Source of the DNA: a virus
Direction: 5' to 3' (one strand)
DNA: 64,000 nt
IMG/VR virus record: IMGVR_UViG_3300032294_002964
Location: 28,078 to 92,077 of that record
Part shown: positions 15,475 through 56,879 of the stretch, one piece after another
How positions within the stretch are numbered: the stretch's first letter is position 1
How the letters are laid out: every line of letters begins with the position of its first letter
Translations under genes and position numbers: made by a program
The notes under the pieces: generated by a model
Databases searched by the model: none
Seen by the model: the letters and a program-made list of their open reading frames with translations, nothing else
What the model was told of the DNA's origin: nothing

Positions 15475-16008
15475 ATGATAAAGCGCCACAGAAATATTGC
15501 TCACTTAAATTCATTGATATTAGGTTCTATTGAATCTAATAGAGTCGATGAGTTAATGCATTATATTTCTGTTTATCCAAAAGATTTAATTGAAAAGCAC
15601 CACAAAAATGGTCACTCTGCTTTTTTAGAAAACGCTCTATTGAAGGCAAGAAATGAATGTGCAAAATTTTTAATTGAATCTGGATTTATTGTTAGAAATC
15701 CTGAATTTATTATTTTAGATACTAAAATTGAAAACCTTGAATTTGCGATGAAAAATATGGAGTCATTGGGATTTCATTTTAGAGAAGAATTTAAAAGTGG
15801 ATTAGTAAGAAGAATATTGGAACCATATAAAGTATTGGATAATCCTAGAAGAGTTAACATTGCTTTAGAATACTTAGAAAGTGGATTTTTTACAGAGATT
15901 CAATTTGAAGAGGCTTTAGATAAAATTTTTAAGTCTAGTAAAGGTAAAAGATTTGAAAATGTTGTAAGATCTTATATACGTGAATATAAACTTAATAAAA
16001 TTCTATGA
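15475..16008 (+). CDS. hypothetical protein with C-terminal RxxKLxxIL motif
   Basis: Ends IREYKLNKIL. Confidence 0.65.
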   Translation: MIKRHRNIAHLNSLILGSIESNRVDELMHYISVYPKDLIEKHHKNGHSAFLENALLKARNECAKFLIESGFIVRNPEFIILDTKIENLEFAMKNMESLGFHFREEFKSGLVRRILEPYKVLDNPRRVNIALEYLESGFFTEIQFEEALDKIFKSSKGKRFENVVRSYIREYKLNKIL

Positions 16009-16364
16009 ACTGGTTGCAAATTGATAGCTATAAATTTGAAGTAATTGATGATGGCTTTAAATATAGTGGACCACTAAAATCTTATCAAAAAGATATGTGG
16101 TCCAATTTTTCATATCATACTATTAAAATAAAGTGTCCAAGTGATATACATTTAATAGGATTGCGCGATAAGATCTTTTCTGATATGAAATATAAAAAAG
16201 ATGGTCAATATTATAGTTGCATCTTTAAACTGAAATCGACCAGAATTTTATCAGATTTTGGACACTTTAAAATTATTAAAGTTGAAGTTGAAGATATAAA
16301 TATTGATGAAGTATCAAAGGATGTAGAAAGAGATTTAAAACTTTCTGACTTATTTGGATTATAA
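16005..16364 (+). CDS. hypothetical protein with C-terminal motif
   Basis: Ends ERDLKLSDLFGL; ATGA overlap with the upstream gene. Confidence 0.65.
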   Translation: MNWLQIDSYKFEVIDDGFKYSGPLKSYQKDMWSNFSYHTIKIKCPSDIHLIGLRDKIFSDMKYKKDGQYYSCIFKLKSTRILSDFGHFKIIKVEVEDINIDEVSKDVERDLKLSDLFGL

Positions 16365-16392
16365 GATGTTGTCTATAATCTAATAATAATAT

Positions 16393-16707
16393 ATGAAAAG
16401 CGAAATCAAAATTGAATTCTCAAACAAGAAAGAACTGAAAAGAGTTATTGAAAAGGCTTACTTTGAAGAAGGTTATTTAGGTAAACTTTTAACCAAGAAT
16501 AATTTTGTAGAAATAACACCTGAAGTAGATGATATTCTCTACACAGTTGTTAAAGGTTTAAATAACGCAACTATTAAAGTTACTAACAATGATTTGATTG
16601 ATGGATCTTGTAGATTTATAGTAGACGATACTGGGGAAAATCCAAAGCTATTCCCAATTTCTATGTATTGTATCGTTGATGATAATAAAAAATACATTTT
16701 TTACTAA
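16393..16707 (+). CDS. hypothetical protein
   Basis: 104 aa ORF after AAC-N18-TATAA at 16338-16364. Confidence 0.6.
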   Translation: MKSEIKIEFSNKKELKRVIEKAYFEEGYLGKLLTKNNFVEITPEVDDILYTVVKGLNNATIKVTNNDLIDGSCRFIVDDTGENPKLFPISMYCIVDDNKKYIFY

Positions 16708-16708
16708 A

Positions 16709-17650
16709 ATGAATAAATTTGATTTTGAGCAAGTTAACCTTGTTCCACGCAAGTGTGTCGTTGATTCAAGGAGTGAGTGTGATACTTCTGTAAAATTCGG
16801 AAACTTCACATTTAAAATGCCTATTGTTCCTGCAAACATGGAATGTGTCATTGATGAAAATGTTGCTATAAAATTGGCAAAGGCAGGATACTTTTATATA
16901 ATTCACCGATTTAATGTTAATCCGATCTTATTCATTCTGCAAATGAAGAATCTTGGATTGGTTTCATCTATATCACTTGGAGTTAATGAAGACTCTTATA
17001 AGATTATTGATGAAATGAAGTCTACTAGTATGATACCAGACTTTATAACAATTGATATCGCACACGGTCATTCAATCAAAATGGAAAGAATGATTAAATA
17101 TATCAAAGAAAACTTACCTACTGTGTTTGTAATTGCTGGTAATATTTCAACATCTGACGCAGTTAGAGATTTAGAAGAATGGGGAGCTGACGCAACTAAG
17201 GTTGGAATTGGACCGGGAATGGCTTGTACTACTTGGCCGACAACTGGATTTGGATCGAGAAATTGTCAAGCTGCTACGGTATACAACTGTTCTCTTGTTG
17301 CTACTAAACCAATTGTTGCTGATGGTGGTATTCGTGTACCAGGTGACATTGCTAAAAGTTTAGTTCTTGGTGCTACTATGGTAATGGTTGGTGGGATGTT
17401 ATCCGGATTTAAAGACTCTCCAGGTCACTTAGTTAGTATTGATGGTAAATACAAAAAAGAATTTTGGGGATCAGCATCACAATTTCAATCAGGAAAATCA
17501 AATCGTATTGAAGGTACTAAAATTCTAGTTGATTATAAAGATCGTTCTATTTTAGATGAAATGAAATATTTAGAAGAATGTCTTCAAAGTTCAATTTCAT
17601 ACGGTGGTGGAACCGATCTTAGTTGTTTTTCTAAGGTTAAGTGGATTTAA
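16709..17650 (+). CDS. guaC: GMP reductase
   Basis: SRSECDT, PANM, TIDIAHGHS, KVGIGPG.ACTT, ADGGIR, FWGSAS; start set at MNKFDFE. Confidence 0.9.
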   Translation: MNKFDFEQVNLVPRKCVVDSRSECDTSVKFGNFTFKMPIVPANMECVIDENVAIKLAKAGYFYIIHRFNVNPILFILQMKNLGLVSSISLGVNEDSYKIIDEMKSTSMIPDFITIDIAHGHSIKMERMIKYIKENLPTVFVIAGNISTSDAVRDLEEWGADATKVGIGPGMACTTWPTTGFGSRNCQAATVYNCSLVATKPIVADGGIRVPGDIAKSLVLGATMVMVGGMLSGFKDSPGHLVSIDGKYKKEFWGSASQFQSGKSNRIEGTKILVDYKDRSILDEMKYLEECLQSSISYGGGTDLSCFSKVKWI

Positions 17651-19348: not shown

Positions 19349-19378
19349 AGATTTATATATTAATTTAATAATATACTA

Positions 19379-19762: not shown

Positions 19763-19766
19763 TTAA

Positions 19767-21875: not shown

Positions 21876-22991
21876 ATGAAGACTATTGGACTATGTATGA
21901 TTGTAAAAGACGAATCTCATGTTATAACGAGATGTCTAGACTCAGTAAAAAGACTATTAGATTATGTTCTTATTGTAGATACTGGTTCGATTGACGGAAC
22001 GCCTCAAGTTATTTATAACTGGTTATCTCAAAATCAAATTCCAGGTGAGGTTATAATAGAGCCTTGGAAAAACTTTGCATATAATAGAAGTTTTGCTTTA
22101 AAGAAACTTAGAGAAAAAGAAGATATCGACTATGCTTTAATGATAGATGCTGATGAAATTTTAGTATTTGAGAATGATTTTAATGTAGAAATTTTTAAGT
22201 CAAGTTTATACGCAGACATATATGACATATTAACAAATATGGGAGGATTTACATATAATAGACCAACTTTAACATCGAATAGAAGAAATTCAAGATACGA
22301 GGGAGTTGTTCACGAGTTTTTAGCAATGGATGATGGTGGATCAAAAGACTCAGCAAGGGGATTTTATAATTGCCCTATACAAGATAGTGCTAGAAATAGA
22401 AGTTCTAATAAATTTTTAAAAGATGCTGAACTTCTAGAAGAGGCTCTAAAAGATCCAGAATTAAGTGATTGGTTTAGATCAAGGTATACTTTTTATTTAG
22501 CACAGTGCTATAGAGATGGTGGTAAACCAGAGTTATCTTTAGAAAGATACTTAGAAAGATCAAAACAAGGGTTCTGGGAAGAAGAAGTTTACATGAGTCT
22601 TTATACAGCAGCTAACTTAATGAAGGGTTTAAATTATTCTAAAGAAAAAGTTTTACAGACATATATGGAAGCACATGAGGCTCTACCATATAGAGCAGAG
22701 GCTATTCACGGTGCAATTAATTACTGTCGATACAATGGATTAAATCAACAAGGATACATTTTAGGCAAGCATGCTATTACAATAAAATGTCCCGAAAATT
22801 CACTTTTTGTAGAAAAGTGGATTTATGACTACGGAATATTAGATGAATTTTCTATTTTAGCTTTTTGGGCTGGAAATTTTCAAGAATCTAAAGAAGCATG
22901 TGAAAGACTACTGTTTGAAAATAAAATACCCGACCATTATGTTGATCGGGTTAAATCTAATTTACAGTTTGCAATTGATAGACTTAGTTAA
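21876..22991 (+). CDS. GT2 family glycosyltransferase with TPR region
   Basis: LCMIVKDE, VDTGSIDGT, IDADE, GVVHE, FYLAQCYRD. Confidence 0.9.
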   Translation: MKTIGLCMIVKDESHVITRCLDSVKRLLDYVLIVDTGSIDGTPQVIYNWLSQNQIPGEVIIEPWKNFAYNRSFALKKLREKEDIDYALMIDADEILVFENDFNVEIFKSSLYADIYDILTNMGGFTYNRPTLTSNRRNSRYEGVVHEFLAMDDGGSKDSARGFYNCPIQDSARNRSSNKFLKDAELLEEALKDPELSDWFRSRYTFYLAQCYRDGGKPELSLERYLERSKQGFWEEEVYMSLYTAANLMKGLNYSKEKVLQTYMEAHEALPYRAEAIHGAINYCRYNGLNQQGYILGKHAITIKCPENSLFVEKWIYDYGILDEFSILAFWAGNFQESKEACERLLFENKIPDHYVDRVKSNLQFAIDRLS

Positions 22992-24036
22992 AATTAGGTG
23001 ATTCTTTTAATTTAGATAGAATTTCTCTCTCACTCGTCGAGATGTTTTGAGGAATCTTTATATTCATTCTGATAAATAAATCACCAATTGCACCTCTTAG
23101 ATTAAGATCTGGAACACCCTTTCCTTGAAATCTCAGTACCTTTCCATGTTCAGTTCCAGGTTGAACTGAGAAGCTCATTTCACCATGTGGTGTTGATATT
23201 TTATATTCCTTTCCTAAAATTGCATCGATAACTGAAACATATTGATCATAAACTAAATTATTATTTTCTCTTTTAAAAAAAGGATCTTGTTTCTCTTCTA
23301 TGTGAATAATTAAGTCACCTGGTTGTCCTAACTTTATCCAATTTCCCATTTGATTCATTGATAAGTTTACACCACCAACTGCACCACTTGGTATTTTTAT
23401 ATCTACTGTTTCTTCTTTAGGAACAGTTCCCTGACCTCTACAATTATTACAATTTGTTTTAGTAATTTGTCCGTGACCATTGCAAGAGGTACAATTAATT
23501 ATCTGTTGAATTGTACCAAATGGAGTTTGTTGAACAACTCTTCTTTGTCCAGTTCCTTGACAAATACCACAATTTGTTAAATCTCTACCACCATACCCAT
23601 CGCAAGTATTACACTTAACTTGTCTTGTATATCTAAGTGTTTTATCAACACCTTTTATAATATCACCGATAGTTACATCAACTTTTATTCTAAGATCGTT
23701 TCCTCTTCTATTTTGTCTTTGAGAATTCATATTTCCAAATCCAAAAATATCACCAAATCTTGAAAAGATATCATCCATTCCGAATCCACCAAATGGACTT
23801 CCACCTCCTCCAAAATTACCACCTACAGAACCATATGTGTCATATTCTTGTTTCTTTTGTGGATCTGATAATACATCAAATGCCTCAGCACATTCTTTAA
23901 ACTTTTCTTCAGCTGTAGAATCACCTGGATTTTTATCCGGATGATACTTCATAGCCATCTTTCTATATGATTTTTTTATTTCATCAGCTGATGATCCTCT
24001 ATCAACTTCAAGTATTTGATAATAATCTTTACTCAT
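22984..24036 (-). CDS. dnaJ: chaperone DnaJ
   Basis: J domain with HPD, G/F-rich region, four CxxCxGxG repeats. Confidence 0.95.
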   Translation of the reverse strand: MSKDYYQILEVDRGSSADEIKKSYRKMAMKYHPDKNPGDSTAEEKFKECAEAFDVLSDPQKKQEYDTYGSVGGNFGGGGSPFGGFGMDDIFSRFGDIFGFGNMNSQRQNRRGNDLRIKVDVTIGDIIKGVDKTLRYTRQVKCNTCDGYGGRDLTNCGICQGTGQRRVVQQTPFGTIQQIINCTSCNGHGQITKTNCNNCRGQGTVPKEETVDIKIPSGAVGGVNLSMNQMGNWIKLGQPGDLIIHIEEKQDPFFKRENNNLVYDQYVSVIDAILGKEYKISTPHGEMSFSVQPGTEHGKVLRFQGKGVPDLNLRGAIGDLFIRMNIKIPQNISTSEREILSKLKESPNFN

Positions 24037-24080
24037 ATTTTAATTATTCTTTTTATTTTATTTTAACAAAAATTATACCA

Positions 24081-24611
24081 CTATATACTTAGATGTCTGG
24101 ATAATTTTATATCTCTAATTTCTTTTTTCATCTCATCAACTGAAATAGAAGCTAAATAACTAATTTTAGATCCTATATAATCTTCTACTATTAAGGTTAG
24201 AATTTCAGAATTAGTATCAATATTTTCAAAGTCATTTAATTTATCATGATTTTTTAAAAATTTATTTGATAAGAACTCCAAAAATTCTCTTAAATTAAAT
24301 TGCAATTGATACAATTCAAGTCTATAGTTATGTATCTCACCCGGTACTGATGAGAAAATACCTGGCTTATTAATAAAAAACATAGAATAAGCTCTTCTAA
24401 GAGTCGGTAGTATATACTCAATTGGACTATTAGAGTTCTCTATTTTTTTATAGAAAACTGGATCGGTAAATAAATCATAGTGTAAAGTTGTGGAGTCTTT
24501 AAATAACTCTTTAAGGTGTTTAACATCCTCTGTGTTATTTATTCCTCCACACAATGTGCTATAAAGAATCTCATTATCTAAGTCCTTTAATGATTTAAAG
24601 TCACCACTCAT
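24081..24611 (-). CDS. hypothetical protein with C-terminal motif
   Basis: Ends IRDIKLSRHLSI. Confidence 0.6.
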   Translation of the reverse strand: MSGDFKSLKDLDNEILYSTLCGGINNTEDVKHLKELFKDSTTLHYDLFTDPVFYKKIENSNSPIEYILPTLRRAYSMFFINKPGIFSSVPGEIHNYRLELYQLQFNLREFLEFLSNKFLKNHDKLNDFENIDTNSEILTLIVEDYIGSKISYLASISVDEMKKEIRDIKLSRHLSI

Positions 24612-25111
24612 TTTGATAAAATAACTTTTGGATATCTAAATGGCTTACCATTTATTGTATATCCTTTTGATACAACATCAATTATTTTTTTCTCACCAGT
24701 CTCTAACATTGAAACCACCTCGTGTAAATCAGAATCGTATGTCTCTGTTTGAATTTCTTCAATTCCTTGATTTTTCAAAAAATTATGAACTTTATTAAGA
24801 ATAATATTAATTCCCTCAGATTCACCAATTGATTTTTTTGCTATGTGTAAATCATTATCTAAATCAAGAATTGAATTTAACATTTTACCCTTAGTGCTAA
24901 TTACTAATTCTTCTTTTTCTTTTTGAACACGCTTCTTATAGTTTTCAAATTCAGCATAGAGTCTCATGTATGAGTCTTTTGATTTAATCTCAGCATACTC
25001 ATCCATTATCTCATTTAAAACTAATTCACCTGCTTCATCGTGAATAATTTTGAACTTCTTATTATCCTCACCAAGAAGTTTCTTTTCTCTTAAAAATTCT
25101 ACTGTATCCAT
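24608..25111 (-). CDS. grpE: nucleotide exchange factor GrpE
   Basis: RLYAEFENYKKR, YDSDLHEVV, KGYTINGKPFRYPKV. Confidence 0.9.
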   Translation of the reverse strand: MDTVEFLREKKLLGEDNKKFKIIHDEAGELVLNEIMDEYAEIKSKDSYMRLYAEFENYKKRVQKEKEELVISTKGKMLNSILDLDNDLHIAKKSIGESEGINIILNKVHNFLKNQGIEEIQTETYDSDLHEVVSMLETGEKKIIDVVSKGYTINGKPFRYPKVILSK

Positions 25112-25112
25112 A

Positions 25113-27318: not shown

Positions 27319-29190
27319 TTACTTAACTTCTTCAAAGTTTATGTCTTCTGCTTGAGGTTGACCATCTTGTTGTGGTTCTTGAGTAGAAGCCTGTGAATAC
27401 AAGTTTGTACTAATTTTATTCCAAGATTCATTTAGTTTTTCCATCTCAGAATCAATCTTAGTAATATCTTGATCTTTATGAGCTGTTCTCAATTCATTTA
27501 AAATTGAGTTCAACTCAGTCTTATCATCTTCGGTCAATTTCTCATCAAACTCTTTAATTTGTTTTTCTGTTTGGAAAATCATATTATCAGCTTGATTTAA
27601 TTTATCTACTTTCTCTTTCTCAAGTCTATCAGATTCAGCATTTGCTTCAGCTTCCGCCTTCATTCTTTCGATTTCTTCTTTAGAAAGTTGAGATCCACCT
27701 TCAATTCGTATTTTATTTTCTTTACCAGTTGCCTGATCTTTTGCAGTTACTGAAAGTATGCCATTAGCATCAATGTCAATTGTACATTCAATTTTTGGAA
27801 CACCGCGAGGTGCTGACATGATTCCATCAAGATGGAATCTACCAAGTGAACGATTATCACGAGCCATTGGTCTTTCACCTTGTAGTACATGTATTTCTAC
27901 GGAAGGTTGGTTATCAGATGCTGTAGAGAATACTTCAGATTTACGAGTTGGTATAGTAGTGTTAGCTTCAATTAGTTTTGTAAATACACCACCCATAGTC
28001 TCAATACCTAAAGAAAGTGGAGTAACATCTAAAAGAAGGACATCAGTGATGTTTCCAGTTAATACTGCTCCTTGAATAGCCGCTCCAATAGCAACAACTT
28101 CATCAGGATTTACAGATTTATTTGGCTTTTTACCAAAATTTTTCTCAATTGCCTCTTGAATTGATGGAATTCTTGTTGACCCACCAACTAAAATAATTTC
28201 ATCAATGTCTGATGCCTTTATCTTTGCATTTGTGAGTGCATTTTTAGCACATTGAATAGCTCTATCAACAAGTGATGATGTCAATTGTTCAAATTTAGAC
28301 CTTGTCATTTTCTTAACAAAGTGTAGAGGCATTCCATCTTTTGCAGTAATATAAGGAAGATTAATTTCACTTTCTGTTGTTGAACTTAATTCAATCTTAG
28401 CTTTCTCAGCGGCATCTTTTAATCTTTGAAGGGCCATTGGATCTTTAGAAAGATCCATTGAGTTTTCAGATTTAAACTCTTCAACCATCCAGTTAATAAT
28501 AGCATTGTCGAAATCGTCACCACCTAAGTGAACATCACCATCAGTAGATTTTACTTCAAAAACACCGTCACCGATTTCAAGTACTGATACATCGTGTGTA
28601 CCACCACCACAGTCAAATACTAAAATTTTAGCATCTTTATTCTTTTTATCAAGGCCATATGCCAAAGCTGCAGCAGTTGGTTCATTGATAATACGCTCAA
28701 CTTCAAGACCAGCTATTTTACCAGCCTCAATAGTTGCAGTTCTTTCAGCATCTCCAAAATATGCGGGTACAGTAATAACTGCTCTTGTAACTTCGTGACC
28801 AAGATAGTCCTCTGCAGTTTTTTTCATTTTTTGAAGAATCATCGCTGAAATTTCCTGAGGAGTATACTTGCGATCATCGATTTGAACTGCCGGAACATTA
28901 TTACCAGTTTTAACTACTTTATAAGGTACTCTTTTGATTTCATCTGTGCAGATTGAAAAATCCTTACCAATGAATCTCTTAATAGAGTAAACTGTTTTTT
29001 CTGGGTTAGTTACTGCCTGTCTTTTGGCAGGATCTCCGATTTTACGATCTTTGTCAGTAAATCCAACAACTGATGGTGTTGTTCTCTTACCTTCTGAATT
29101 TGTGATTACAATTGGGTCATTTCCTTCAACCACAGCTACAGCACTGTTTGTGGTTCCCAAATCAATTCCTATAATTACGTTTTTGCTCAT
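27319..29190 (-). CDS. dnaK: chaperone DnaK (Hsp70)
   Basis: [43 protein letters not shown]. Confidence 0.98.
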
Positions 29191-41924: not shown

Positions 41925-42454
41925 CTTAATATTTGTTGTAATTGTATATCTCGGTAGAGTGAATTAAAAGTTTCTCTGATATCATCTCTTTTAATATCAT
42001 AATACTGTTTATTAGTATAATAATCCCAAGATTTACTTTGAACCTCTTTATTCACACTAGTGTATATATCTTTGACTAAATCTATACAATTTTCTTTTTT
42101 GCAGTAATCGATTAAATTTCCAATAAAATCAAATTCTATTTTTTGAAATCCATCATAAAATTGAATTTTTGAATAATTTCTTAAATAGTTTTTAATATTA
42201 ACTTCGTTATACTCTCTTGTATCTTGACCTGGATCTGCAAATAAAGGTGATATAAAGTAAAATTTATAGTCTGTTTTTTGAAGATTTTTTACAACTTTTA
42301 AAATATCTCTACTGTTTCTTAAATCTAAGAATATATTTATTTCAGTATCACTTATAATATCAAATACTGGAAGCCAGGCGACATTATATCTAAAGGCTCT
42401 ATTCTTAGATATCTTCCACTCTCCCGACTTTGGTATGATACTATTTAAGTCCAT
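41921..42454 (-). CDS. hypothetical protein with C-terminal motif
   Basis: Ends YRDIQLQQILR. Confidence 0.6.
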   Translation of the reverse strand: MDLNSIIPKSGEWKISKNRAFRYNVAWLPVFDIISDTEINIFLDLRNSRDILKVVKNLQKTDYKFYFISPLFADPGQDTREYNEVNIKNYLRNYSKIQFYDGFQKIEFDFIGNLIDYCKKENCIDLVKDIYTSVNKEVQSKSWDYYTNKQYYDIKRDDIRETFNSLYRDIQLQQILR

Positions 42455-42796: not shown

Positions 42797-43252
42797 TTAT
42801 ATTAAATTTTCAAGTTTATAGTTCCTTTGAAGTGATTTTATGTATGCCTCACATACAGGTACACCTATTTCTTCTGATGAGATATTTTCTAATTCTAACT
42901 TAATATTAAGTATTTTAGAATCATTATGTGAAAAATTAACCTCAGATTTAATGAATTTTACTGAAATCAAAAATTGATTTAAAACACTACCTTTTTTATC
43001 GTGAGAAACATGTATAACATACTTTACATCTTTTAGAAAATTATCAAAATTTAAATACTTAAAATTAACGGAGTCTATTGAGAAAGTTACATCAATTTTA
43101 TTATCATTTAATGTATTTGTATAAGACAATTCGTAACATAAATCTTTAATGTGATAATTCTCTGTTACTAAAACAAATTCAAAAAGATTTGAATAAATAG
43201 GTTCTAACTCCATAGTAGATTTAGAAGGCATTGCGAAATAAGGTAGAGGCAT
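42797..43252 (-). CDS. hypothetical protein with C-terminal motif, possibly tail-tube derived
   Basis: MPLPYF...EPIYSNLFEF at the N-terminus; ends QRNYKLENLI. Confidence 0.5.
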   Translation of the reverse strand: MPLPYFAMPSKSTMELEPIYSNLFEFVLVTENYHIKDLCYELSYTNTLNDNKIDVTFSIDSVNFKYLNFDNFLKDVKYVIHVSHDKKGSVLNQFLISVKFIKSEVNFSHNDSKILNIKLELENISSEEIGVPVCEAYIKSLQRNYKLENLI

Positions 43253-45180: not shown

Positions 45181-46521
45181 ATGTCTCAGAAAACTATCAC
45201 AGAATTCTTATCCAATGAATACAAAGAATTCGCTCTTTATTCTATTGAGGGTAGAGCAATACCTTCAGTAATTGATGGATTTAAACCTACGCAGAGAAAA
45301 ATTATACACATTGCCAATTTAGTTTGGAAAACAGGAACTGAGAAGAATCTTAAAGTTTTTCAATTATCTGGTAAAGTTGCATCTGATGCATTCTATCATC
45401 ACGGTGATATGTCACTATCAAATGCTATCATAAATTTAGCACAGAAATTTAAAAATAACGCACCTCTTTTAGAAGAAGATGGTCAGTTTGGTTCTCTTAG
45501 ATCTCCTCAAGCAGGCGCACCAAGATATATTGGTACTAAATTAAGTGCTAACTTTAGGTTAATTTATAAAGACTTTGAACTATTAGAATATAAAGAAGAA
45601 GAGGGTGAGAAAATAGAACCAAAATATTTCTTACCAATTATTCCAACTGTATTAATCAATGGTGGTTCAGGTATCGCTGTTGGTTTTGCTTCTAATATAT
45701 TAAATAGAGATATTAAGGAAGTTATAGATGTGTGTGTTAAATACCTTAACGGTAAAAAAATAACAACAGTTAAACCATCTCTAAATGGATTTACAGGCAC
45801 ATATACACAAGATATAGAAAATAACAAAAAATGGCACATAAGAGGTAAATTTGAAAGAATTAACTCATCTACAGTTAAGATTACCGAACTACCACCGTCA
45901 ATGACATATGAAAAATATGAAGAGATACTTGATAAATTAATTGAAAATAAAGATATTGTATCCTATGAAGATAACTGTAAAGACAACATAGACTATACAA
46001 TTAAATTTACAAGAGTTGGATTAGAGATACTAGATGATGAAAAGATAGTAAAACTTCTGAAATTAGAAGAATCTGAAACTGAGAATTTTAACACACTTGA
46101 TGAAGGTGGTAAATTGAAGATATTTGAAAGTGTTGATGATATAATAAAATACTTTGTTGATTTTAGATTAGGTTACTACCAGATTAGAAAAGATCATCAA
46201 TTGGATAAGATGCAACACGAACTTAAAGTTTTAGGTAATCGTGGTAAATTTATCAAGGCAATTTTAGATGGCAAGATAGTAGTTAATAATAAATCAAAAG
46301 ATGAAATAGTATCTCAGATTGAGTCTATGGCTATTGAAATGATAGATGGTTCTTATGATTATCTTTTGAGGATGCCTATCTACTCTTTAACAAAAGAGAT
46401 GTTTGAAAAGTTAAAAGAAGATTTTTCAAATAAGAAAGATGAGATTGAAAAACTTAAATTAGTTGATCCAAAAGATATGTACTTAGAGGATTTGTCGGAG
46501 TTAAAAAAGAAAGTAAAATGA
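45181..46521 (+). CDS. gp52: type II DNA topoisomerase breakage-reunion subunit (T4 gp52-like)
   Basis: RAIPSVIDGFKPTQRK, YHHGD, APRY (catalytic Tyr), GIAVGF, ITELP. Confidence 0.95.
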   Translation: MSQKTITEFLSNEYKEFALYSIEGRAIPSVIDGFKPTQRKIIHIANLVWKTGTEKNLKVFQLSGKVASDAFYHHGDMSLSNAIINLAQKFKNNAPLLEEDGQFGSLRSPQAGAPRYIGTKLSANFRLIYKDFELLEYKEEEGEKIEPKYFLPIIPTVLINGGSGIAVGFASNILNRDIKEVIDVCVKYLNGKKITTVKPSLNGFTGTYTQDIENNKKWHIRGKFERINSSTVKITELPPSMTYEKYEEILDKLIENKDIVSYEDNCKDNIDYTIKFTRVGLEILDDEKIVKLLKLEESETENFNTLDEGGKLKIFESVDDIIKYFVDFRLGYYQIRKDHQLDKMQHELKVLGNRGKFIKAILDGKIVVNNKSKDEIVSQIESMAIEMIDGSYDYLLRMPIYSLTKEMFEKLKEDFSNKKDEIEKLKLVDPKDMYLEDLSELKKKVK

Positions 46522-46886
46522 AATTTATCCCAGAATTCATATTGTCAATAGACTTATATGACAATCATACTTTGAAAAGATTCAATCATATTGTTTTCAA
46601 AAAAGATGATAATGTTGTTATACTCATCGATGACTCTGAAAAAGTTAATGATGTTTCAAAAATGCCACATTATATACAAGAGGATTATTTAAAGTATAAC
46701 TCAAAACAAATAGAGGAAAGGGACATAAATTTCTTAATAAAGAAGTTAGAATGGTGGTGTGGAATGGGTAATGATGAAACAAATAAAGTACCACCTTCAT
46801 CAGATAAGTATGATGAGTATATGGAGAAGATTCAAATTCTTAAAAATATCAAAAGAGACATTAAAATAAAAAGTTTGTTATCTTGA
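46518..46886 (+). CDS. hypothetical protein with C-terminal motif
   Basis: Ends KRDIKIKSLLS. Confidence 0.6.
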   Translation: MKFIPEFILSIDLYDNHTLKRFNHIVFKKDDNVVILIDDSEKVNDVSKMPHYIQEDYLKYNSKQIEERDINFLIKKLEWWCGMGNDETNKVPPSSDKYDEYMEKIQILKNIKRDIKIKSLLS

Positions 46887-47511: not shown

Positions 47512-48066
47512 GTGAAACCTTTAATCATTTTAGATATTGATGAAACCTTAATTCACACTGAGAGTGTTCCTTTAGAATATGAAATGCACTATGATTATGA
47601 TTTCAAATTTAAAGGTCTTGGGAAGTCTTTTTATTATACAAAAAAGAGACCATTTCTTGATCAGTTTTTGAAATATGTTTTTGAAAATTTTGATGTTGCA
47701 ATCTGGACAGCAGCTGGTGAGGATTACGCTTTAGAAATTTTAAAAGGAATTAATGTTGATAAATCTAAATTAAAATTCTTTTATACTCAAGAAAACTGTA
47801 CTATTAAACTTAGTTATGATTATTCAGACTACTATGGTGTGAAAAATTTAAATAAATTAAAGAAAAAAGGATACAATTTAGATAAAGTTCTGATCGTGGA
47901 TGATAAATCTGAGACTGCTGTAAACAACTATAGTAATCTAATACAGGTTAAACCATTTACAGACGATTTAGATGATACAGAACTACTTAAATTAATTTCA
48001 TACTTAGAAACTATTAAAGATGAACCCAATTATAGAAGAATTGAAAAACGAGGATGGTCGGTATAG
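47512..48066 (+). CDS. HAD phosphatase, FCP1/NIF family
   Basis: LDIDETLIH, KRPFL, IWTAA, IVDD. Confidence 0.85.
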   Translation: MKPLIILDIDETLIHTESVPLEYEMHYDYDFKFKGLGKSFYYTKKRPFLDQFLKYVFENFDVAIWTAAGEDYALEILKGINVDKSKLKFFYTQENCTIKLSYDYSDYYGVKNLNKLKKKGYNLDKVLIVDDKSETAVNNYSNLIQVKPFTDDLDDTELLKLISYLETIKDEPNYRRIEKRGWSV

Positions 48067-48442
48067 AGTTAGAAAACTATCTGATTATAAGATACAATTA
48101 GACTATAAAGTTCCTATATTCGCTGCTCATGAAGATTCCGTTAGAGTTATTGATACAATAAGAGTAAAGGTTAGGTACGGAATTGATAAGGATGAGCGTA
48201 GACACTCTAATGAGTTACCTACTTACTACTTAATACCATTTAAGGATCGTTTCATTCAAATATTATCACAAAGTTGGAAAATTAAGAAAAAATTCATACA
48301 TTTGCAAAGGAAAAGTGGTCTCAATACAATTGATGGATATTTAATTTCGGGATTGTATTGTGGATTTATTTTTGATGATAAAAGTTGGACAAGAGATTAT
48401 TTAATTAGTAAAATATTAGAAAATGAAACCGGAAGTAATTAA
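48020..48442 (+). CDS. hypothetical protein with near-terminal motif
   Basis: TRDYLISKILE. Confidence 0.55.
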   Translation: MNPIIEELKNEDGRYRVRKLSDYKIQLDYKVPIFAAHEDSVRVIDTIRVKVRYGIDKDERRHSNELPTYYLIPFKDRFIQILSQSWKIKKKFIHLQRKSGLNTIDGYLISGLYCGFIFDDKSWTRDYLISKILENETGSN

Positions 48443-48812: not shown

Positions 48813-49121
48813 ATGACTCAGAGTATTGATCTAACAAGTAGTATTGATCTAACAAGTAGACTCGCATTCGTGACTCAACCAAATGTATTAGTAATAAATG
48901 CACCTAATAATGAAAAGTTGTTAGAGATAACTAATGATGGTGATGTATTTTTCAGACTTAATGGTGAGTGGAAAAAAATTGAATGTGAGAATGATATATC
49001 ACTTATGTTTGTCGCTGTTATATCAGGATTGACTGGTTTTTCATACAAGGATAAAAACGAATTAATCTGTAAAATTATCAACAATTACAGAGAAAATAAG
49101 ATCGATAATATTTTGTCATGA
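48813..49121 (+). CDS. hypothetical protein with C-terminal motif
   Basis: Ends YRENKIDNILS; AAC-N18-TATAA at 48781-48807. Confidence 0.6.
   Translation: MTQSIDLTSSIDLTSRLAFVTQPNVLVINAPNNEKLLEITNDGDVFFRLNGEWKKIECENDISLMFVAVISGLTGFSYKDKNELICKIINNYRENKIDNILS
48822..48857 (+). repeat. 18-bp tandem duplication (SIDLTS x2)
   Basis: AGTATTGATCTAACAAGT twice, in frame. Confidence 0.85.
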
Positions 49122-50185: not shown

Positions 50186-50599
50186 ATGACTTTTAATGAC
50201 TCGGTAAAATCCTTAGTTTATAGTATAGCTGAGGAAACAATTAGTGGAAGAATTCAATGGATTCCTAATAGTGACTGTAAAATGCAGATTACTGTTGAGG
50301 ATATGAATTTTGAATTTATAGTCACATGGAAACTTGATGTAGATAATGGATGGGTAATGAATTCTGGATGGATGAATATAAAATCTAATAAGGTTGACTT
50401 TACTATTCATTCTTATAATTTTCCAGAACCAATGAAACAATTAACTGATTATTTATATAATCAGTACTTTTTCAAGTACAAACCATCTGAGCAATCTATT
50501 ATTGATCAAATGGAAAATGTAACAAAGAAGTTATCTATTGTTGAATATAGAGATAAAAAATTATCCAATCTTTTTGGTATTTTAAATGACAAGAAATGA
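50186..50599 (+). CDS. hypothetical protein with near-terminal motif
   Basis: YRDKKLSNLF. Confidence 0.6.
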   Translation: MTFNDSVKSLVYSIAEETISGRIQWIPNSDCKMQITVEDMNFEFIVTWKLDVDNGWVMNSGWMNIKSNKVDFTIHSYNFPEPMKQLTDYLYNQYFFKYKPSEQSIIDQMENVTKKLSIVEYRDKKLSNLFGILNDKK

Positions 50600-50993
50600 T
50601 TTAAATGGGCTTTACTGGTTTTGGTCTAAAACACAACTTAGAAACAAAAAAGGTGAGGTTAATAGCAGAAGTATATTATTATTTGAAACATATTTAAAAA
50701 CAGTTGTTTTAACAATGAAATATAACGGTCAATCAAAAGCGGAGTTTAATAAAAACTACAAAAGAATCGCTGATATTATTGAAAAATCAGATGATCCAAA
50801 TAGACAATCTGCTTTAGCACAAACACAAGCAGGCAGAATAAGTGATGAATGGAAGGCTATTAATAGAGCAATGGCCGCTAAAGAAATGGGACATGAACAC
50901 TTATTTGAAATCTTCTTTAGAAGAGCATACGATTTGGGTTCAGTTGGTAAACAAGAATACAGAGAATATCAATTATCAAAATTAGGAATATAA
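50586..50993 (+). CDS. hypothetical protein with C-terminal motif
   Basis: Ends YREYQLSKLGI. Confidence 0.6.
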   Translation: MTRNDLNGLYWFWSKTQLRNKKGEVNSRSILLFETYLKTVVLTMKYNGQSKAEFNKNYKRIADIIEKSDDPNRQSALAQTQAGRISDEWKAINRAMAAKEMGHEHLFEIFFRRAYDLGSVGKQEYREYQLSKLGI

Positions 50994-51667: not shown

Positions 51668-52048
51668 ATGCTTGGAAAAAACACAATAAAAGTATCTCAA
51701 AAATTTATTGAGATATATCAAAACTTCAATGTTTCAGATCAAAGAGAAAAAATGAGTGAACTATCAAAAAAAGAATTATATCTTCTTTTAGACTCTTGTG
51801 TTGATAGTCATGATGAAGATGATCCAACTGTTATTCTTAATTTATCTCCATATTTTTTGGAGTTAAAAGAGATTTTGAAAATTCAATCCGGTGATGAAGT
51901 TAATAATGATATTTTAAAGGAGTTGCAAAAAGATACCGACTTTAGATTATCGAGTGATAGAGTATCAGAGAGTGGTGAAAAATTACCAAGTATATACACA
52001 AGAGATCAAGTTAGAGAACTCAAGCTTAATAAAATTTTTGATAAGTAA
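51668..52048 (+). CDS. hypothetical protein with C-terminal motif
   Basis: Ends VRELKLNKIFDK. Confidence 0.6.
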   Translation: MLGKNTIKVSQKFIEIYQNFNVSDQREKMSELSKKELYLLLDSCVDSHDEDDPTVILNLSPYFLELKEILKIQSGDEVNNDILKELQKDTDFRLSSDRVSESGEKLPSIYTRDQVRELKLNKIFDK

Positions 52049-52067: not shown

Positions 52068-52087
52068 TATTTCTAAATATTCCAAGA

Positions 52088-54229
52088 ATGAAATTTAAAC
52101 ATTTTGAAACAGAGTCAGGTAAGACTATAAAAACAGCCGAATTTGATGGATATAGTGTGGGAGATCGATTACTTGAAGGTCTTATGTTCCAAGTAGATAT
52201 CCAAGATGATGGAACAATGAAGGTTTATGTTAAAGATAAAGATCAAAAATGGTTTGATCAATTTAATACCGCAAAGTGGCTTGAGGAAGCTCAAAAATTT
52301 GCAGAAGGTAATGATATTTTTGAAGATCCTATTTCAGGAGAAGAATGCTGGGCAGTTACCGATGAAGTGACTACTTTGCCTCAAAAAACCGGTCATGTAA
52401 TTAAAACATCAACTATTGATGAAATTCTAAATTCTAAAGTTTCTAAAACTCTTGAAAAGGATCTTGGTGAAACTGAAGAAAAGGCTGAAGTCAAAGAACC
52501 TTTAATTGGTCAATATAAGCCGAAACGAAAGTTCTTAAATTTTATCACCGGACTTAAAGGTCGAATTCGACTTTTAAATAATTCTGCCTTTATTAAGGGT
52601 GAACAACTATCTGGGATGCTTGAAGGAGTTATCTTTAAAGTAACTATCTGTGATGAAGGTACAATCAACTTTGAAGAGGTTGATACAAACCAAACTACAC
52701 CAGATATGATACAACGACTTATCGATGAAATCGATGCTCGTGATGTAACTGGATATACTCAGAAATTTGTAGTATCTGGTCTCGATTTTTATGATGATGA
52801 TGCAAAATCTTGCTATCTTGAAGTAGAACACAAAAAACCAATTGATATGTTATTCTCACTATTTGACGAAGAAAAACCACAAGTAACTGAAACTGGTATG
52901 TCTATTCTTGACGCACTTTTCAGTTCTGAAACTGATGAAGAACTTGCCCGAGAATTTGAAGGTGAGTCTGATGAAGAAATTCAAAAAGAGTCTGAACCAG
53001 AGATAGTAGAAAACGAAGCTCAGAAAATGATGCGTGAATCCTTTGAAAAGATGAACGCTGAAAAAGTTCAAGAGTTGAAAGAACGAATTGAAAAGACTGA
53101 AAAAGAAATCAGTAAGTTGCGTATTGATGTAAAGCAAGCGGAGTCTAAAATTACATCTTCTTCCAAAGATTTGAAAGTTCTTAATACACGATTAGAGTCT
53201 TTGAGTCCAAAAGATCCTTCTGTTGGTTATGACTTCTTTGTTTCGAATGAAAACAAAACTGGTATTGAACCAGATGAAAACTTGGTATCGGTTGTTGAAA
53301 AGATTGCACCACTTTTGAAACTCAATACACCAGTTGTGATTAATATGTTGACTAAAGGATACTACACAATCAAAGTTCAGAAACAAGGGCCAGAAGAGGA
53401 TAAAAATAAACTGGATAAAGAAATTTATCAAAAGATCCAAAAGATTGATGTAATGGGTAAAGTTACTATGGTTGATACTTGTGAATTCGAGTACCGGGGT
53501 GATATGACTTGGCATCAATTGGTTGATAAGATGATCCGAATGGGATTTGATCAAAATCCAGACTTTGATAAAGAGTGTGGTTCAAACTCTTATGAGACTA
53601 AAGAGGAAGAAAAAGATGAAACTAATAACGATATGAATGATATGAAGAGCGCCATTATGAAGATGGCAGAAGATTTGGAAAAAAGTGGTACGAAGGGTAT
53701 GGTCGATTTGGCTGAGAGTAATATCAAGTCTATTGAAGAAAACTCGGAAGTGAAGTTTAAGGAATTGGTAGTATTTGATACACCAACTGATATTGTAATC
53801 ATCGGAAACAGGGATGAAGATGCTAAAGAGATTGTTGACTTTATGATTACTGATGATGAAACCGGATTTGATTTGTATGTTGATGGCAAAGAAAAAATGT
53901 CAATGATGTCGAGTGGATTTGGTGCTGTTATGACACTTAATGAATATAAAAAATTATATTCTCTAAAGGGTGAGGATATGGCAGAATATCACATTGTCGA
54001 AGGTGTTATTATTCCAGGATTTGTAGGTAAAATTGAAATTGGTGCTAAATTGGATGATGGTAGTATTTCAACAGATTTTGATTTAACAGATTATATTCAA
54101 CATCAACATGACTACTGTGATGTTATTGTAAACATTACTGGGAATCCAGAAATGTTTAAATTGAATGAAGACCTTTCTCTACCAACTGCAATTTTGAGAG
54201 ATATTAAGATTGATAAAATCATTAAATAA
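52088..54229 (+). CDS. large acidic multidomain protein with coiled coil and C-terminal motif
   Basis: 713 aa; internal repeat LEGLMFQV/LEGVIFKV; ends LRDIKIDKIIK. Confidence 0.7.
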   Translation: MKFKHFETESGKTIKTAEFDGYSVGDRLLEGLMFQVDIQDDGTMKVYVKDKDQKWFDQFNTAKWLEEAQKFAEGNDIFEDPISGEECWAVTDEVTTLPQKTGHVIKTSTIDEILNSKVSKTLEKDLGETEEKAEVKEPLIGQYKPKRKFLNFITGLKGRIRLLNNSAFIKGEQLSGMLEGVIFKVTICDEGTINFEEVDTNQTTPDMIQRLIDEIDARDVTGYTQKFVVSGLDFYDDDAKSCYLEVEHKKPIDMLFSLFDEEKPQVTETGMSILDALFSSETDEELAREFEGESDEEIQKESEPEIVENEAQKMMRESFEKMNAEKVQELKERIEKTEKEISKLRIDVKQAESKITSSSKDLKVLNTRLESLSPKDPSVGYDFFVSNENKTGIEPDENLVSVVEKIAPLLKLNTPVVINMLTKGYYTIKVQKQGPEEDKNKLDKEIYQKIQKIDVMGKVTMVDTCEFEYRGDMTWHQLVDKMIRMGFDQNPDFDKECGSNSYETKEEEKDETNNDMNDMKSAIMKMAEDLEKSGTKGMVDLAESNIKSIEENSEVKFKELVVFDTPTDIVIIGNRDEDAKEIVDFMITDDETGFDLYVDGKEKMSMMSSGFGAVMTLNEYKKLYSLKGEDMAEYHIVEGVIIPGFVGKIEIGAKLDDGSISTDFDLTDYIQHQHDYCDVIVNITGNPEMFKLNEDLSLPTAILRDIKIDKIIK

Positions 54230-54257
54230 GTATAATAATACACACACTTAACTTTAT

Positions 54258-54743: not shown

Positions 54744-54767
54744 AATAGAAAATAATTCTTATATTTG
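54737..54767 (+). promoter_or_regulatory. Bacteroidetes sigma70-type promoter
   Basis: TTTG-N19-TATATTTG. Confidence 0.7.
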
Positions 54768-54786
54768 TAAAAATAATACATCGAAG

Positions 54787-56373
54787 ATGATAGTAAAAAA
54801 TATACACGAAAAACTTCTGAACACAATTCAGACAATGTTGATTGACACAAAAGTCAATCTTCCATATTACGGTGAGTTTAACCTTCACATTAACTTTCAC
54901 GAGCAAGATTCTATTGGTACTTGTGCGGTTAACGTGACTTCAAAAGGTATGAACTTTTTCTACTCACCAAAGTTCCTTGAGCATATGTCTCAGAAAGAGG
55001 TGAATTTTATCGCATTGCACGAAGATTTCCACCTTCTTTTCAATCACCCTCGTCGTACAATTACTGGTCAATATGACCACAAACTTTCTAATATCGCTCA
55101 AGACATGATTATTAATCACGTTATTTGGGAAGATATTTCACACGCATTCGTAGAAATTCCTAAGAACAAAGATGGTAAGAACATGGCTCTATTCGTTCCG
55201 AAAGAGTACACTGGTAAACTTATCTTTGAAGAGTTGTATGAGTGGTTGAAAGAGAAGAAAGAAGAATTCCAAAAGAAGCAGAAAGAAGGTAAGTGCAAGA
55301 ACTCACAATGTCAGTCTTGCAACGGTACAGGTAAGAAACAAGACCAAGGTGGTCAGGGTCAACAGCAAGGTCAAGGCCAACAACAAGGTCAGGGTCAAGG
55401 TCAGGGTCAAGGTCAACAAGATGGTCAAGGACAAGGTCAGGGTCAAGGTCAACAAGATGGTCAAGGACAAGGTCAGGGTCAGAGCCAAGGCCAAGGTGGT
55501 GGACAACCAGGTGGCCAAAATGGTAATGGCGGTGGTGGAAACCAAGACGAGTCATGTCCAGACTGTGGTGGCACCGGAAACGAAGGTGGTAAAGACGCCT
55601 CTGGTAAACCATCATACGGTCCTTATGGTAAGAACCCATCTAAAGATGGTGAATCAATTGACACTTGGAGTACAGACCAAATTTTCCAAGATTTGGAAAA
55701 TGGTACTGGTGAATACCTTGACAAGCATATTGGTGACGATGTACCAGAAGAAATGCGTGAAGCAATGGTGCGTGATGTGATGGACAGACTTGCATCTCGT
55801 GGTCTTTCAGCGGGTAATGTTGAGACAACTCTTAACAAACTTCGCAAGCAGCGTAAAGACTACTTGAAAGAGATCAAGCGTTCTGTATCTAATATGATCT
55901 TTGGTCATATCAAGCAAAAGACCATTGTTAAACCAAATCGTCGTCAAATTGCAGGATTGAAAGGTAACCGTAAGATTAAGAGTAAAGTAAACGTTATTCT
56001 TGACACATCTGGTTCTATGGGTGGTCAAGGTACATTCGAAAGAGTTCTTTCTTATGTATATCGAAATGATATAGAAATCAACTTTATCCAAGGTGATACC
56101 GAAGTGAAGTGGGTAGAGAACTTCAAGAAGGCTAAACAACTTGAGACTATGAAAATTCACGGTCTTGGTGGTACAGTTCTTCAACCATCTGTTGACTATG
56201 TAGTTGAACACTACAACGAGTACAACACTGTTGTATTGACCGATGGTTACACAGACAATTTGGACTTGTCAAAAGTTAAAGGTCGAGTGTTGATGATTAC
56301 AGTTGGTGTGAAAGTACCAATCGCAAGAACTAACAACAAGGTTAAGCAAATCGTATTAGAAAATACTCATTAA
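54787..56373 (+). CDS. DUF2201-like metallopeptidase + vWA protein
   Basis: HEDFH (HExxH), NIAQDMIIN, MIDAS DTSGSM, GGT, LTDG; GQ-rich linker. Confidence 0.85.
   Translation: MIVKNIHEKLLNTIQTMLIDTKVNLPYYGEFNLHINFHEQDSIGTCAVNVTSKGMNFFYSPKFLEHMSQKEVNFIALHEDFHLLFNHPRRTITGQYDHKLSNIAQDMIINHVIWEDISHAFVEIPKNKDGKNMALFVPKEYTGKLIFEELYEWLKEKKEEFQKKQKEGKCKNSQCQSCNGTGKKQDQGGQGQQQGQGQQQGQGQGQGQGQQDGQGQGQGQGQQDGQGQGQGQSQGQGGGQPGGQNGNGGGGNQDESCPDCGGTGNEGGKDASGKPSYGPYGKNPSKDGESIDTWSTDQIFQDLENGTGEYLDKHIGDDVPEEMREAMVRDVMDRLASRGLSAGNVETTLNKLRKQRKDYLKEIKRSVSNMIFGHIKQKTIVKPNRRQIAGLKGNRKIKSKVNVILDTSGSMGGQGTFERVLSYVYRNDIEINFIQGDTEVKWVENFKKAKQLETMKIHGLGGTVLQPSVDYVVEHYNEYNTVVLTDGYTDNLDLSKVKGRVLMITVGVKVPIARTNNKVKQIVLENTH
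55342..55540 (+). repeat. Gly/Gln coding low-complexity repeat
   Basis: GGTCAA/GGTCAG iterations encoding (GQ)n with QQDGQ units. Confidence 0.85.
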
Positions 56374-56399
56374 AAAGAGGACCTTCGGGTCCTTTTTTT
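56372..56399 (+). terminator. intrinsic terminator with cUUCGg tetraloop
   Basis: AGGACC-TTCG-GGTCCT followed by a T run. Confidence 0.85.
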
Positions 56400-56411
56400 A
56401 TACATATATAG

Positions 56412-56879
56412 ATGATAATATTAATTAGATGTGATAAAGAAGTCAGAAGTTATAATAACTGGACGACTACTTTTAATTCGGAAATTGGGGATATTAATGA
56501 GGTATTTACCAGTAATGGATTATCTACGCTTCTTCTATATAAAAGAAAACTACCTGATGAAGTTAGAAAATCTACAACTCAAAAAAGAGGAATAGGTTCA
56601 ATTTCGTCACTTGATTTTTCACTATTAACACAAGACTGCATTCTATTATATCATGGTGATGTTCTTGATGAACAGAAAGATGTGAAGGCTATTGAGGAGT
56701 TATTTCAACTTTGTCACAACAATCAAAAACATCTAGTTCTACAATTTAGTTTAGAAAACCAACATTTGATTAATCATATTTGTACTGGATCGGAAGTCTA
56801 TATTCATAGAGATGAATTGAAGACATTCTTAGTAAGACTAGATCGAGAATTAAAGATTAGTAAACTATTTAGCGAATAG
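56412..56879 (+). CDS. hypothetical protein with C-terminal motif
   Basis: Ends DRELKISKLFSE. Confidence 0.6.
   Translation: MIILIRCDKEVRSYNNWTTTFNSEIGDINEVFTSNGLSTLLLYKRKLPDEVRKSTTQKRGIGSISSLDFSLLTQDCILLYHGDVLDEQKDVKAIEELFQLCHNNQKHLVLQFSLENQHLINHICTGSEVYIHRDELKTFLVRLDRELKISKLFSE

Follow-up and report, generated by a model that had tools for sequence, protein, structure and literature searches.

A short peptide motif (here termed the tag) recurs at the C-termini of otherwise unrelated proteins encoded by a 64-kb stretch of viral DNA, IMG/VR record IMGVR_UViG_3300032294_002964, positions 28,078 to 92,077 (hereafter the window, meaning all 64,000 nucleotides analyzed). The window is part of one 92-kb contig with a G+C content of 28%, which represents approximately 13% of a huge-phage genome as estimated by CheckV, and whose source is an uncultured huge Bacteroidota phage. 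Among catalogued phages, its nearest relatives are LR745206 (635 kb) and LR756502 (642 kb), both uncultured, in which core proteins are 70–83% identical to those of the contig; a DNA-level search of catalogued phages returned no close relative. Whole genomes were fetched for comparison, and open reading frames (ORFs) were called identically for each. An initial annotation of this DNA had listed 16 copies of the tag, and every one of them was found at its reported position. The ORFs that carry them (carriers) are the following, in window coordinates:

15475..16008, plus strand: carrier of 177 residues, ends IREYKLNKIL-stop; no Pfam or PHROG match
16005..16364, plus strand: carrier of 119 residues, ends ERDLKLSDLFGL-stop; no match in Pfam or PHROG
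24081..24611, minus strand: carrier of 176 residues, ends IRDIKLSRHLSI-stop; lies between grpE and dnaJ
36278..36778, minus strand: carrier of 166 residues, ends IRNKKISTIL-stop; the LR756502 homologue (32% identity) is also tagged
36759..37400, minus strand: dCMP deaminase of 213 residues (Pfam dCMP_cyt_deam_1, residues 83–189) with a 75-residue N-terminal extension ending ERDKKLNQLLS
41661..41924, minus strand: carrier of 87 residues, KRQHKIDQIL 17 residues before the stop
41921..42454, minus strand: carrier of 177 residues, ends YRDIQLQQILR-stop; the LR745206 homologue (40% identity) is also tagged
42797..43252, minus strand: carrier of 151 residues, ends QRNYKLENLI-stop
46518..46886, plus strand: carrier of 122 residues, ends KRDIKIKSLLS-stop
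48020..48442, plus strand: carrier of 140 residues, TRDYLISKIL 7 residues before the stop
48813..49121, plus strand: carrier of 102 residues, ends YRENKIDNILS-stop
50186..50599, plus strand: carrier of 137 residues, YRDKKLSNLF 7 residues before the stop
50586..50993, plus strand: carrier of 135 residues, ends YREYQLSKLGI-stop; the LR745206 and LR756502 homologues (57–67% identity) are tagged
51668..52048, plus strand: carrier of 126 residues, ends VRELKLNKIFDK-stop
52088..54229, plus strand: largest carrier, 713 residues, ends LRDIKIDKIIK-stop
56412..56879, plus strand: carrier of 155 residues, ends DRELKISKLFSE-stop

Four further carriers are encoded on the contig outside the window. Fifteen of the 16 copies lie 0–17 residues from the stop codon, 12 of them at a distance of 0–2 residues, and the remaining copy is the internal one in the deaminase, where MSDKQ, the start of the deaminase domain, directly follows ERDKKLNQLLS. 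In LR745206, a 51-residue tagged ORF is found just upstream of a 139-residue deaminase, as two separate genes, and the internal copy can therefore be read as an in-frame fusion of a small tagged ORF to the dCMP deaminase. The ORF itself has the appearance of a stop-codon loss.

The tag is strongly concentrated at the ends of proteins. A strict form of the pattern, R[DENQ]x[KQ][IL]xx[IL][LIF], with its end at most 3 residues from the C-terminus, was scored on the 130 ORFs of the contig and occurs in 13 of them, compared with 0.004 expected from per-protein shuffles and 0.01 expected when the last 20 residues alone are shuffled. At internal positions, three matches were observed and 0.2 expected. 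The enrichment at C-termini, for which the initial annotation had proposed shuffled and internal controls, is far beyond chance. Within the tag, the Arg is encoded by AGA (14), CGT (2), CGA (2), and AGG (1), and the Ile/Leu positions by 5–8 different codons each. Because codons vary at the conserved positions, the constraint is on the peptide, and the earlier proposal that selection acts on the peptide rather than the DNA is upheld; a DNA-level signal, such as a promoter or ribosome-binding site within the gene ends, was rejected since every conserved position is codon-variable.

A pooled profile of 146 tags from the contig and LR745206 has K at position -4, S/Q at -3, a hydrophobic residue (h) at -1, an invariant R at 0, [DEN] at 1, K at 3, [IL] at 4, [IL] at 7, and [LIGF] at 8, after which one or two residues and then the stop usually follow. 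The motif ends 0–2 residues before the stop in 104 of the 146 tags (modes 1 and 2), and the residues after position 8, which number from 0 to 7, are variable (K, D, N, E, S, I). On a helical wheel drawn by hand, residues -4, 0, 4, 7, and 8 share one face with the Arg mid-face, and the invariant Arg falls between positions 4 and 7, at the center of the hydrophobic face. This central placement of the Arg fits protein–protein docking and argues against a membrane-binding helix. The tag, K(-4)..h-R-[DEN]-x-K-[IL]-x-x-[IL]-[LIGF], is an amphipathic helix of 9–13 residues, and in an AlphaFold2 model of the 713-residue carrier (mean predicted local distance difference test score, pLDDT, 81.5) it forms the terminal helix, residues 700–712. 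Full-text literature searches aimed at the tag found no earlier description of it, in line with the initial annotation, which knew of none.

Outside of this tail, the carriers have nothing in common at the sequence level. Those in the window range from 87 to 713 residues and occur on both strands, and the carriers overall range from 41 to 731 residues; no alignment was found between them upstream of the motif, which agrees with their first description as otherwise unrelated. The 20 contig carriers have no Pfam match and no PHROG match, and essentially none of the 113 carriers examined in LR745206 matches Pfam. The claim that no recognizable enzyme ends with the tag also stands. Most contig carriers have either no detectable homologue in LR745206 and LR756502 or one at 25–40% identity, while the core genes neighboring them keep 70–83% identity; the carriers evolve fast. 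They are numerous, are often found in tandem arrays, and in some cases have predicted membrane segments. In those carriers that do have homologues, the tail is the best-conserved part of the protein; in the family of the carrier at 15475..16008, for example, the sequence REYKLxK[IL]L is unchanged in homologues at 46–55% identity.

The family of the largest carrier (52088..54229) indicates how the tag may be gained and lost. This family comprises 538 homologues sharing a 380-residue core; approximately 30 representatives have a C-terminal extension that ends in the tag, and in the other members the core is either the end of the protein or is followed by another kind of C-terminal module. Because the tag is part of an optional extension in this family, it moves as a module. 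The core itself (residues 130–510, ending ...CGSNSY) corresponds to no known fold or family, and the 713-residue carrier has no match in the PDB, either by sequence or by the fold of its model. The alternative ends read ...Y-x-x-x-N-Y-P-N-S-I-V-stop or ...L-G-[YF]-x-x-L-I....

Transcription units are headed by Bacteroidota-type promoters (TAnnTTTG), here called host-type, and by an AATATATA motif, here called late. A promoter class was assigned from the nearest upstream promoter motif in the transcription unit, which is a heuristic based on consensus motifs, and the ∼35–60% of carriers per genome that have no promoter class were excluded from the counts. By this measure, carriers are found predominantly behind host-type promoters: 63 host-type vs. 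14 late in LR745206, 43 vs. 9 in LR756502, 26 vs. 2 in the IMG/VR genome G002, and 10 vs. 1 in this contig. The opposite pattern (45 late vs. 1 host-type) is seen for LR745206 proteins with an N-terminal leader, and the tag and the leader occur together on only 0–2 proteins per genome. No carrier in the window has the leader, as had been stated earlier. The leader, M-K-[HY]-L-K-x-[FY]-x-x-[FI]-x-E, is present on ∼12 contig proteins and on 61 proteins in LR745206. Leader proteins span 13011–62164 of the window (e.g., 17647–18333, 18330–18857, 19767–20621, and 58184–58963), nearly all behind the AATATATA motif, and the leader (MK[HY]LKxF...) resembles the capsid-targeting sequence of T4.

The occurrence of the tag across the genomes compared (G001 to G006 are handles for further huge-phage genomes) is as follows:

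This contig: 17 of 130 ORFs tagged
LR745206: 129 of 995 ORFs tagged
LR756502: 127 of 1010 ORFs tagged
G002 (IMG/VR, 344 kb): 77 of 521 ORFs tagged, mostly R-E-x-K-L-K-E-L-G-I-stop
LR756504 (first 400 kb): 108 of 627 ORFs with the variant R-K-x-[IKR]-I-x-x-L-L
Prevotella phage Lak-A2: 0 of 672 ORFs tagged
G006: 0 of 471 ORFs tagged
G003: no tag, and no other C-terminal motif in a de novo search

When scored by DNA pattern, G001 (476 kb) was positive, and G004 and G005 were negative. The tag is found on 11–17% of ORFs in complete relatives, and is absent from the Lak phage and from four other complete huge phages (G003–G006). The tag-bearing genomes form one clade, from which G003 and G006 are distant by core-gene identity, and the tag is confined to this clade. 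Its spelling shifts between phage lineages (D/E vs. K at +1, and -IL vs. -LGI endings) around a constant core of R0, [IL]4, and [IL]7; since position +1 is Lys in LR756504, the acidic residue at this position is lineage-specific.

LR756501 (735 kb) does not have this tag with its invariant Arg (the R-tag). A different motif, D-P-Y-G-E-E-x-W, is present there in 103 copies, with none in a backwards-pattern control and none in three other huge phages. Its sites are at C-termini, just behind the N-terminal leader, and occasionally deeper in the protein. In a 41-kb segment (LR756501.1, 158319–199611), seven look-alikes were found (one with S for P), four of them at most 3 residues from the stop, two directly after the leader, and one internal. 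One gene with this motif is directly 3′ of the clpC-like gene of LR756501.

The contig also has other genes typical of huge phages, including those for a gp32-like single-stranded DNA-binding protein (SSB) and both subunits of topoisomerase II. It further encodes an Rnl1-type RNA ligase, a CCA-adding or poly(A) polymerase, a NusG homologue, GMP reductase, and a FEN nuclease, as well as a PKD-repeat protein that bears a type IX secretion signal domain. Four features bear on the question of what might bind the tag:

54787..56373, plus strand: candidate reader, DUF2201 protein (Pfam DUF2201_N 2.5e-16, DUF2201 2e-7)
24608..25111, minus strand: grpE (Pfam GrpE 3e-21)
22984..24036, minus strand: dnaJ (tblastn matches to annotated DnaJ genes)
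27319..29190, minus strand: dnaK/Hsp70 (Pfam HSP70 7.9e-251)

Taken together, these observations suggest, with a probability that we put at roughly 0.6, that the motif is a portable C-terminal docking tag on ∼13% (one in eight) of the proteins of this phage clade. Of the initial proposal that a portable signal routes pre-late accessory proteins to one hub, the portable peptide on non-late accessory proteins holds, given the host-type promoters, the modular tail of the 713-residue family, and the small tagged ORF that is fused to the deaminase; the chaperone and protease hubs named there fare less well, as these occur in tag-less phages too. Mechanistically, the helix with its mid-stripe Arg would connect many different small proteins, expressed early or in the middle of infection, to a single shared partner.

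Candidates for such a partner were sought by gene content. LR745206 proteins were filtered for those with a homologue in LR756502 and G002 and none in G003, G006, and Lak-A2, which leaves 94 proteins; when those without a homologue in the portion of LR756504 that was sampled are also removed, 18 proteins in ∼11 families are left. These include two DNA methylases, a class I tRNA synthetase family, the RNA ligase, several unknowns, paralogues of the window ORF 26042–27280 (which is behind a late motif), and the DUF2201 protein. The latter is the best conserved of the filtered families (79, 73, and 53% identity) and the sole one with peptide-binding or processing domains. It combines a zincin-like metallopeptidase, two DnaJ-type CxxCxGxG motifs, and a VWA domain; the HEDFH zincin motif is invariant in 11 homologues, and the metal ion-dependent adhesion site (MIDAS) motif of the VWA domain, DTSGS, is intact. 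The CxxCxGxG motifs flank a G/Q-rich low-complexity linker of 30–90 residues, the length of which varies among relatives. DUF2201 identity is 70–81% in tag-bearing genomes and 50% in LR756504; G001 also has the protein, whereas none of the tag-less genomes tested (G003–G006 and Lak-A2) does.

The first gene-content filter (94 proteins) was also passed by a MoxR-like protein, a 373-residue AAA+ ATPase with a GVAKS Walker A motif and an EELNRA Walker B region. Its identity is 85% in G001, 77% in LR756502, 71% in G002, 54% in LR756504, and 42–47% in LR756501, where its gene adjoins the DUF2201 gene; it is absent from G003–G006 and Lak. According to the gene order in LR745206, the corresponding gene would lie just past the end of the contig. 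Since the AlphaFold2 model of this protein was poor, profile comparison was used instead, and matched it to the annotated MoxR-like ATPase of cyanophage S-TIM54 with an hhalign probability of 99.3%; the DUF2201 peptidase domain matched its S-TIM54 counterpart at 94%. The VWA-zincin gene is present in six R-tag genomes, which belong to one clade, and the ATPase gene in five of these (the contig ends before the ATPase locus).

Both genes of the pair are behind host-type promoters, as are the carriers, and the codon style of high expression (C-ending/CGT) is strongest in these two, with G+C content at third codon positions (GC3) in the 91st–99th percentile. The DUF2201 gene is at the 99th percentile of GC3 among contig genes of at least 150 residues, and has the most biased codon use (C-ending, CGT) of the contig. 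The same style is found in the highly expressed SSB gene, and not in the clpC-like gene of the contig. Tagged ORFs are present at each of the 16 IMG/VR loci with DUF2201 (77 of 448 ORFs in total), mostly upstream and on the same strand.

The MoxR-like ATPase and DUF2201 protein, which were not among the hubs listed in the initial annotation, form the best-fitting candidate reader of the tag, although as an identification this is possible rather than probable. The VWA domain or the ATPase ring may capture the tail, as CbbQO does with the C-terminus of the Rubisco large subunit, and the machine might then remodel the tagged protein or whatever the tagged protein holds, or the zincin might clip it. 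In a broader and similarly tentative form, the tagged proteins could be a large and rapidly evolving library of clients or adaptors that are interchangeable and connect, each by the same C-terminal helix, to a highly expressed MoxR/VWA-zincin machine. This machine would remodel or clip them, or else host proteins bound by them, and tag and reader would co-evolve between lineages.

Several observations weigh against this pair as the reader. Because the tag-bearing genomes form one clade, tag and pair can be said to have come together only once in evolution, and the same distribution is seen for several further genes specific to the clade. DUF2201 neighborhoods are only moderately tag-rich (55th–95th percentile), and that of the MoxR gene is average. 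The pair is present in LR756501 (40–47% identity) without the R-tag, and the homologous pair of S-TIM54 is next to structural genes, with no shared tail seen in the surrounding 38 kb; in other jumbo phages, the pair has been proposed to act in virion assembly (Iyer et al., 2021; PMC7824862). An acidic residue at +1 would suit a MIDAS site, but LR756504 has Lys in this position, which weakens the idea that the Asp/Glu is generally coordinated by the MIDAS. Lastly, the AlphaFold2 model of the MoxR-like protein has a pLDDT of 55, the alignment being too shallow.

Among the alternatives, the reader could be a host Bacteroidota protein (e.g., RNA polymerase, the ribosome, the beta-clamp, or a host AAA+ protease) on which take-over proteins dock. 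The carriers do resemble host take-over genes in being small, fast-evolving, and behind host-type promoters, the [IL]-x-x-[IL]-L spacing (h, +3, +4) is reminiscent of PIP-like (PCNA-interacting protein) and LxxLL-type helix motifs, and no phage beta-clamp domain was found. However, the Lak phages also infect Bacteroidota (Prevotella) and are tag-less, and a spelling of the tag that depends on phage lineage is more easily explained by a co-evolving phage partner than by a conserved host hub. We consider a host hub unlikely.

It is also rather unlikely that the tag serves as a tether or degron for a phage ClpC-like unfoldase with ClpP, either for scheduled clearance of the carriers or with the carriers as adaptors that deliver host proteins. 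The contig does encode, outside the window, a 703-residue AAA+ protein that is without the adaptor-binding N-domain (Clp_N) and has a UVR coil and a VGF ClpP-docking loop; this protein is 77–78% identical in the relatives, and the complete relatives have ClpP genes. Its gene lies within contig 16713–19194, ∼9–11 kb before the start of the window, and its acidic N-terminus reads SEDDDDVDD; relatives in IMG/VR number 557. Among tag-bearing phages, the closest lineage (ClpC-like at least 65% identical) has a small gene directly upstream of the clpC-like gene that ends with a tag-like R-[RDE]-[DE]-x-[IL]-I-x-x-[IL]-L and a polar tail, which keeps the Clp reading alive but weak. On the contig, the gene preceding the clpC-like gene is conserved, encodes 116 residues, and ends RREDLINELL plus a polar tail; Pfam identifies the small upstream gene as neither Clp_N nor ClpS, and the tag-bearing LR756504 does not have it. 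On the other hand, the ClpC-like protein is 59–62% identical in four complete tag-less huge-phage genomes, and two of those copies are also without the N-domain, so that N-domain loss does not track the tag and was rejected as its correlate. ClpP was likewise rejected as a reader, being found in tagged and untagged phages alike (including the tag-less Lak and LR756511). Furthermore, only 2.7% of ORFs around the clpC-like gene are tagged, the gene does not share the high-expression codon style, and the last residues of the tag are variable, unlike those of degrons that depend on the terminal carboxylate. Relatives of the ClpC-like protein in tag-less phages mostly keep Clp_N and are without the small upstream gene. 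In Lak-A2 (MK250019.1, ∼7300–9546, minus strand), the only AAA_2 match looks like ClpX, with a CxxC zinc-finger start and an inserted segment, perhaps an intein, that splits the AAA+ domain.

A third alternative requires no reader at all, with the tail as a membrane-targeting helix of the MinD/FtsA type or as the conserved final helix of a single paralogous family whose members have diverged enormously. Like the MinD membrane helix, the tail is short, basic, and hydrophobic and is found at the extreme C-terminus, and the membrane segments predicted in some carriers, together with the number and frequent tandem arrangement of the carriers, would be in keeping with one or the other version. Both are very unlikely, given an invariant Arg at the center of the hydrophobic face rather than its edge, carriers of 41–731 residues with no similarity outside the tail, gain and loss of the tag as a module in the 713-residue family, and the fusion of a tagged small ORF to a deaminase.

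Recruitment of the phage Hsp70 system by the tag, for folding or holding of marginally stable small proteins, is highly improbable and its components were rejected as the reader, for although the window encodes dnaK, dnaJ, and grpE, a tagged gene is found between grpE and dnaJ both here and in LR745206 (where the ORF directly upstream of dnaJ ends YREIKLTKILR-stop), and DnaK prefers Leu/Ile cores with basic flanks, Lak-A2 has DnaK (50% identity), DnaJ, and a GrpE homologue (28% identity) with no tag on any of its 672 ORFs, the loose specificity of DnaK would not lead one to expect an invariant Arg with Asp/Glu after it, and the dnaJ and dnaK neighborhoods are not tag-rich, except for that of dnaK in LR756504 (88th percentile). 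The chaperone operon itself (22984–25598, minus strand) consists of a hypothetical gene, grpE, the tagged 176-residue gene, and dnaJ, in an order conserved in LR745206 and LR756502, with dnaK ∼3 kb away. The odds beyond these named readers go to something so far unconsidered.

A docking tag read by one partner would be of value in several respects. Huge phages encode hundreds of small genes without an assigned function, and a single label groups at least 100 of these per genome into one class. The tag also offers an experimental handle, as a single peptide with which to fish for a single partner, and could make contigs of this clade simple to recognize and classify in metagenomes. If the MoxR/VWA-zincin pair is indeed that partner, a function would be provided for a widespread and so far unexplained chaperone pair of large phages, and the tag would define a tag-addressed protein-handling system covering ∼1/8 of a huge-phage proteome, as well as a new viral means of managing fast-evolving take-over or counter-defense proteins.

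In comparison with known short motifs, the tag differs from the beta-clamp motif (QL[SD]LF/QLxLxL) in that its hydrophobic residues are at h, +3, and +4, the Arg is four positions before the first of these, and Gln is at position 3 in only 9 of 146 tags. It is also not a PIP box (Qxx[ILM]xx[FY][FY]), since positions 7 and 8 are I/L and then L/I/G, Phe is at position 8 in 16 of 146 tags, and there is no conserved Gln; nor is it a MinD/FtsA-type helix, which has basic residues at the edge and no invariant residue. The tag (e.g., YRENKIDNILS at 48813–49121) resembles the catalytic loop of AGC protein kinases, YRDLKLDNIL. A kinase loop was rejected, as the carriers have no Pfam kinase match and the motif forms the last 10 residues; the likeness is a coincidence, although it could mislead motif-based annotation.

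Among portable signals, Clp degrons and tethers (the ssrA tag, the MuA-type motif, and the SspB tail) are likewise short C-terminal peptides on unrelated proteins. Such Clp peptides are read by one machine. Unlike the ssrA/ClpX degron (LAA-COOH), the tag described here has no fixed terminal residue or carboxylate context. The T4 capsid-targeting sequence is likewise a short portable peptide found on many unrelated phage proteins, but the T4 signal is N-terminal, late, and cleaved, whereas the tag is C-terminal and non-late.

For the proposed reader, a MoxR/vWA pair with an N-terminal metallopeptidase has been described in group 2.2 jumbo phages, with no mention of tagged proteins (Iyer et al., 2021; PMC7824862). 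The hhalign matches to S-TIM54 (ATPase, 99.3%; peptidase domain, 94%) indicate that the pair of the present clade is homologous; both genes here are behind host-type, non-late promoters. The closest analogues, taken as analogies and with family membership claimed for none, would appear to be the zincin modules of Kaur et al. and CbbQO. VWA MIDAS sites bind peptides, and zincins that are coupled to vWA-MoxR process small, fast-diverging proteins with a conserved C-terminal peptide (Kaur, Burroughs, Iyer, and Aravind, 2020; PMC7159879). The intact HExxH (HEDFH) and the fast-diverging carriers that keep their tail are points of resemblance to these modules. The systems of Kaur et al. are bacterial, with one or few precursors next to the peptidase and FxSxx, RxD, or acidic motifs, whereas the carriers here are found throughout a phage genome of 600 kb, and one protein combines the zincin with the VWA domain. 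For CbbQO, a MoxR–VWA pair, the Rubisco large subunit must end in an exact motif; truncation or extension by a single residue abolishes recognition, and the motif occurs only together with cbbQ and cbbO (PMC8718961). Similarly, the tag is found 0–2 residues from the end of proteins in genomes that have a MoxR-like/VWA pair with the DTSGS MIDAS. In contrast to the single client of CbbQO, more than 100 clients would be served here through an interaction proposed by analogy, and by a VWA protein that adds a zincin domain and a DnaJ-type zinc finger.

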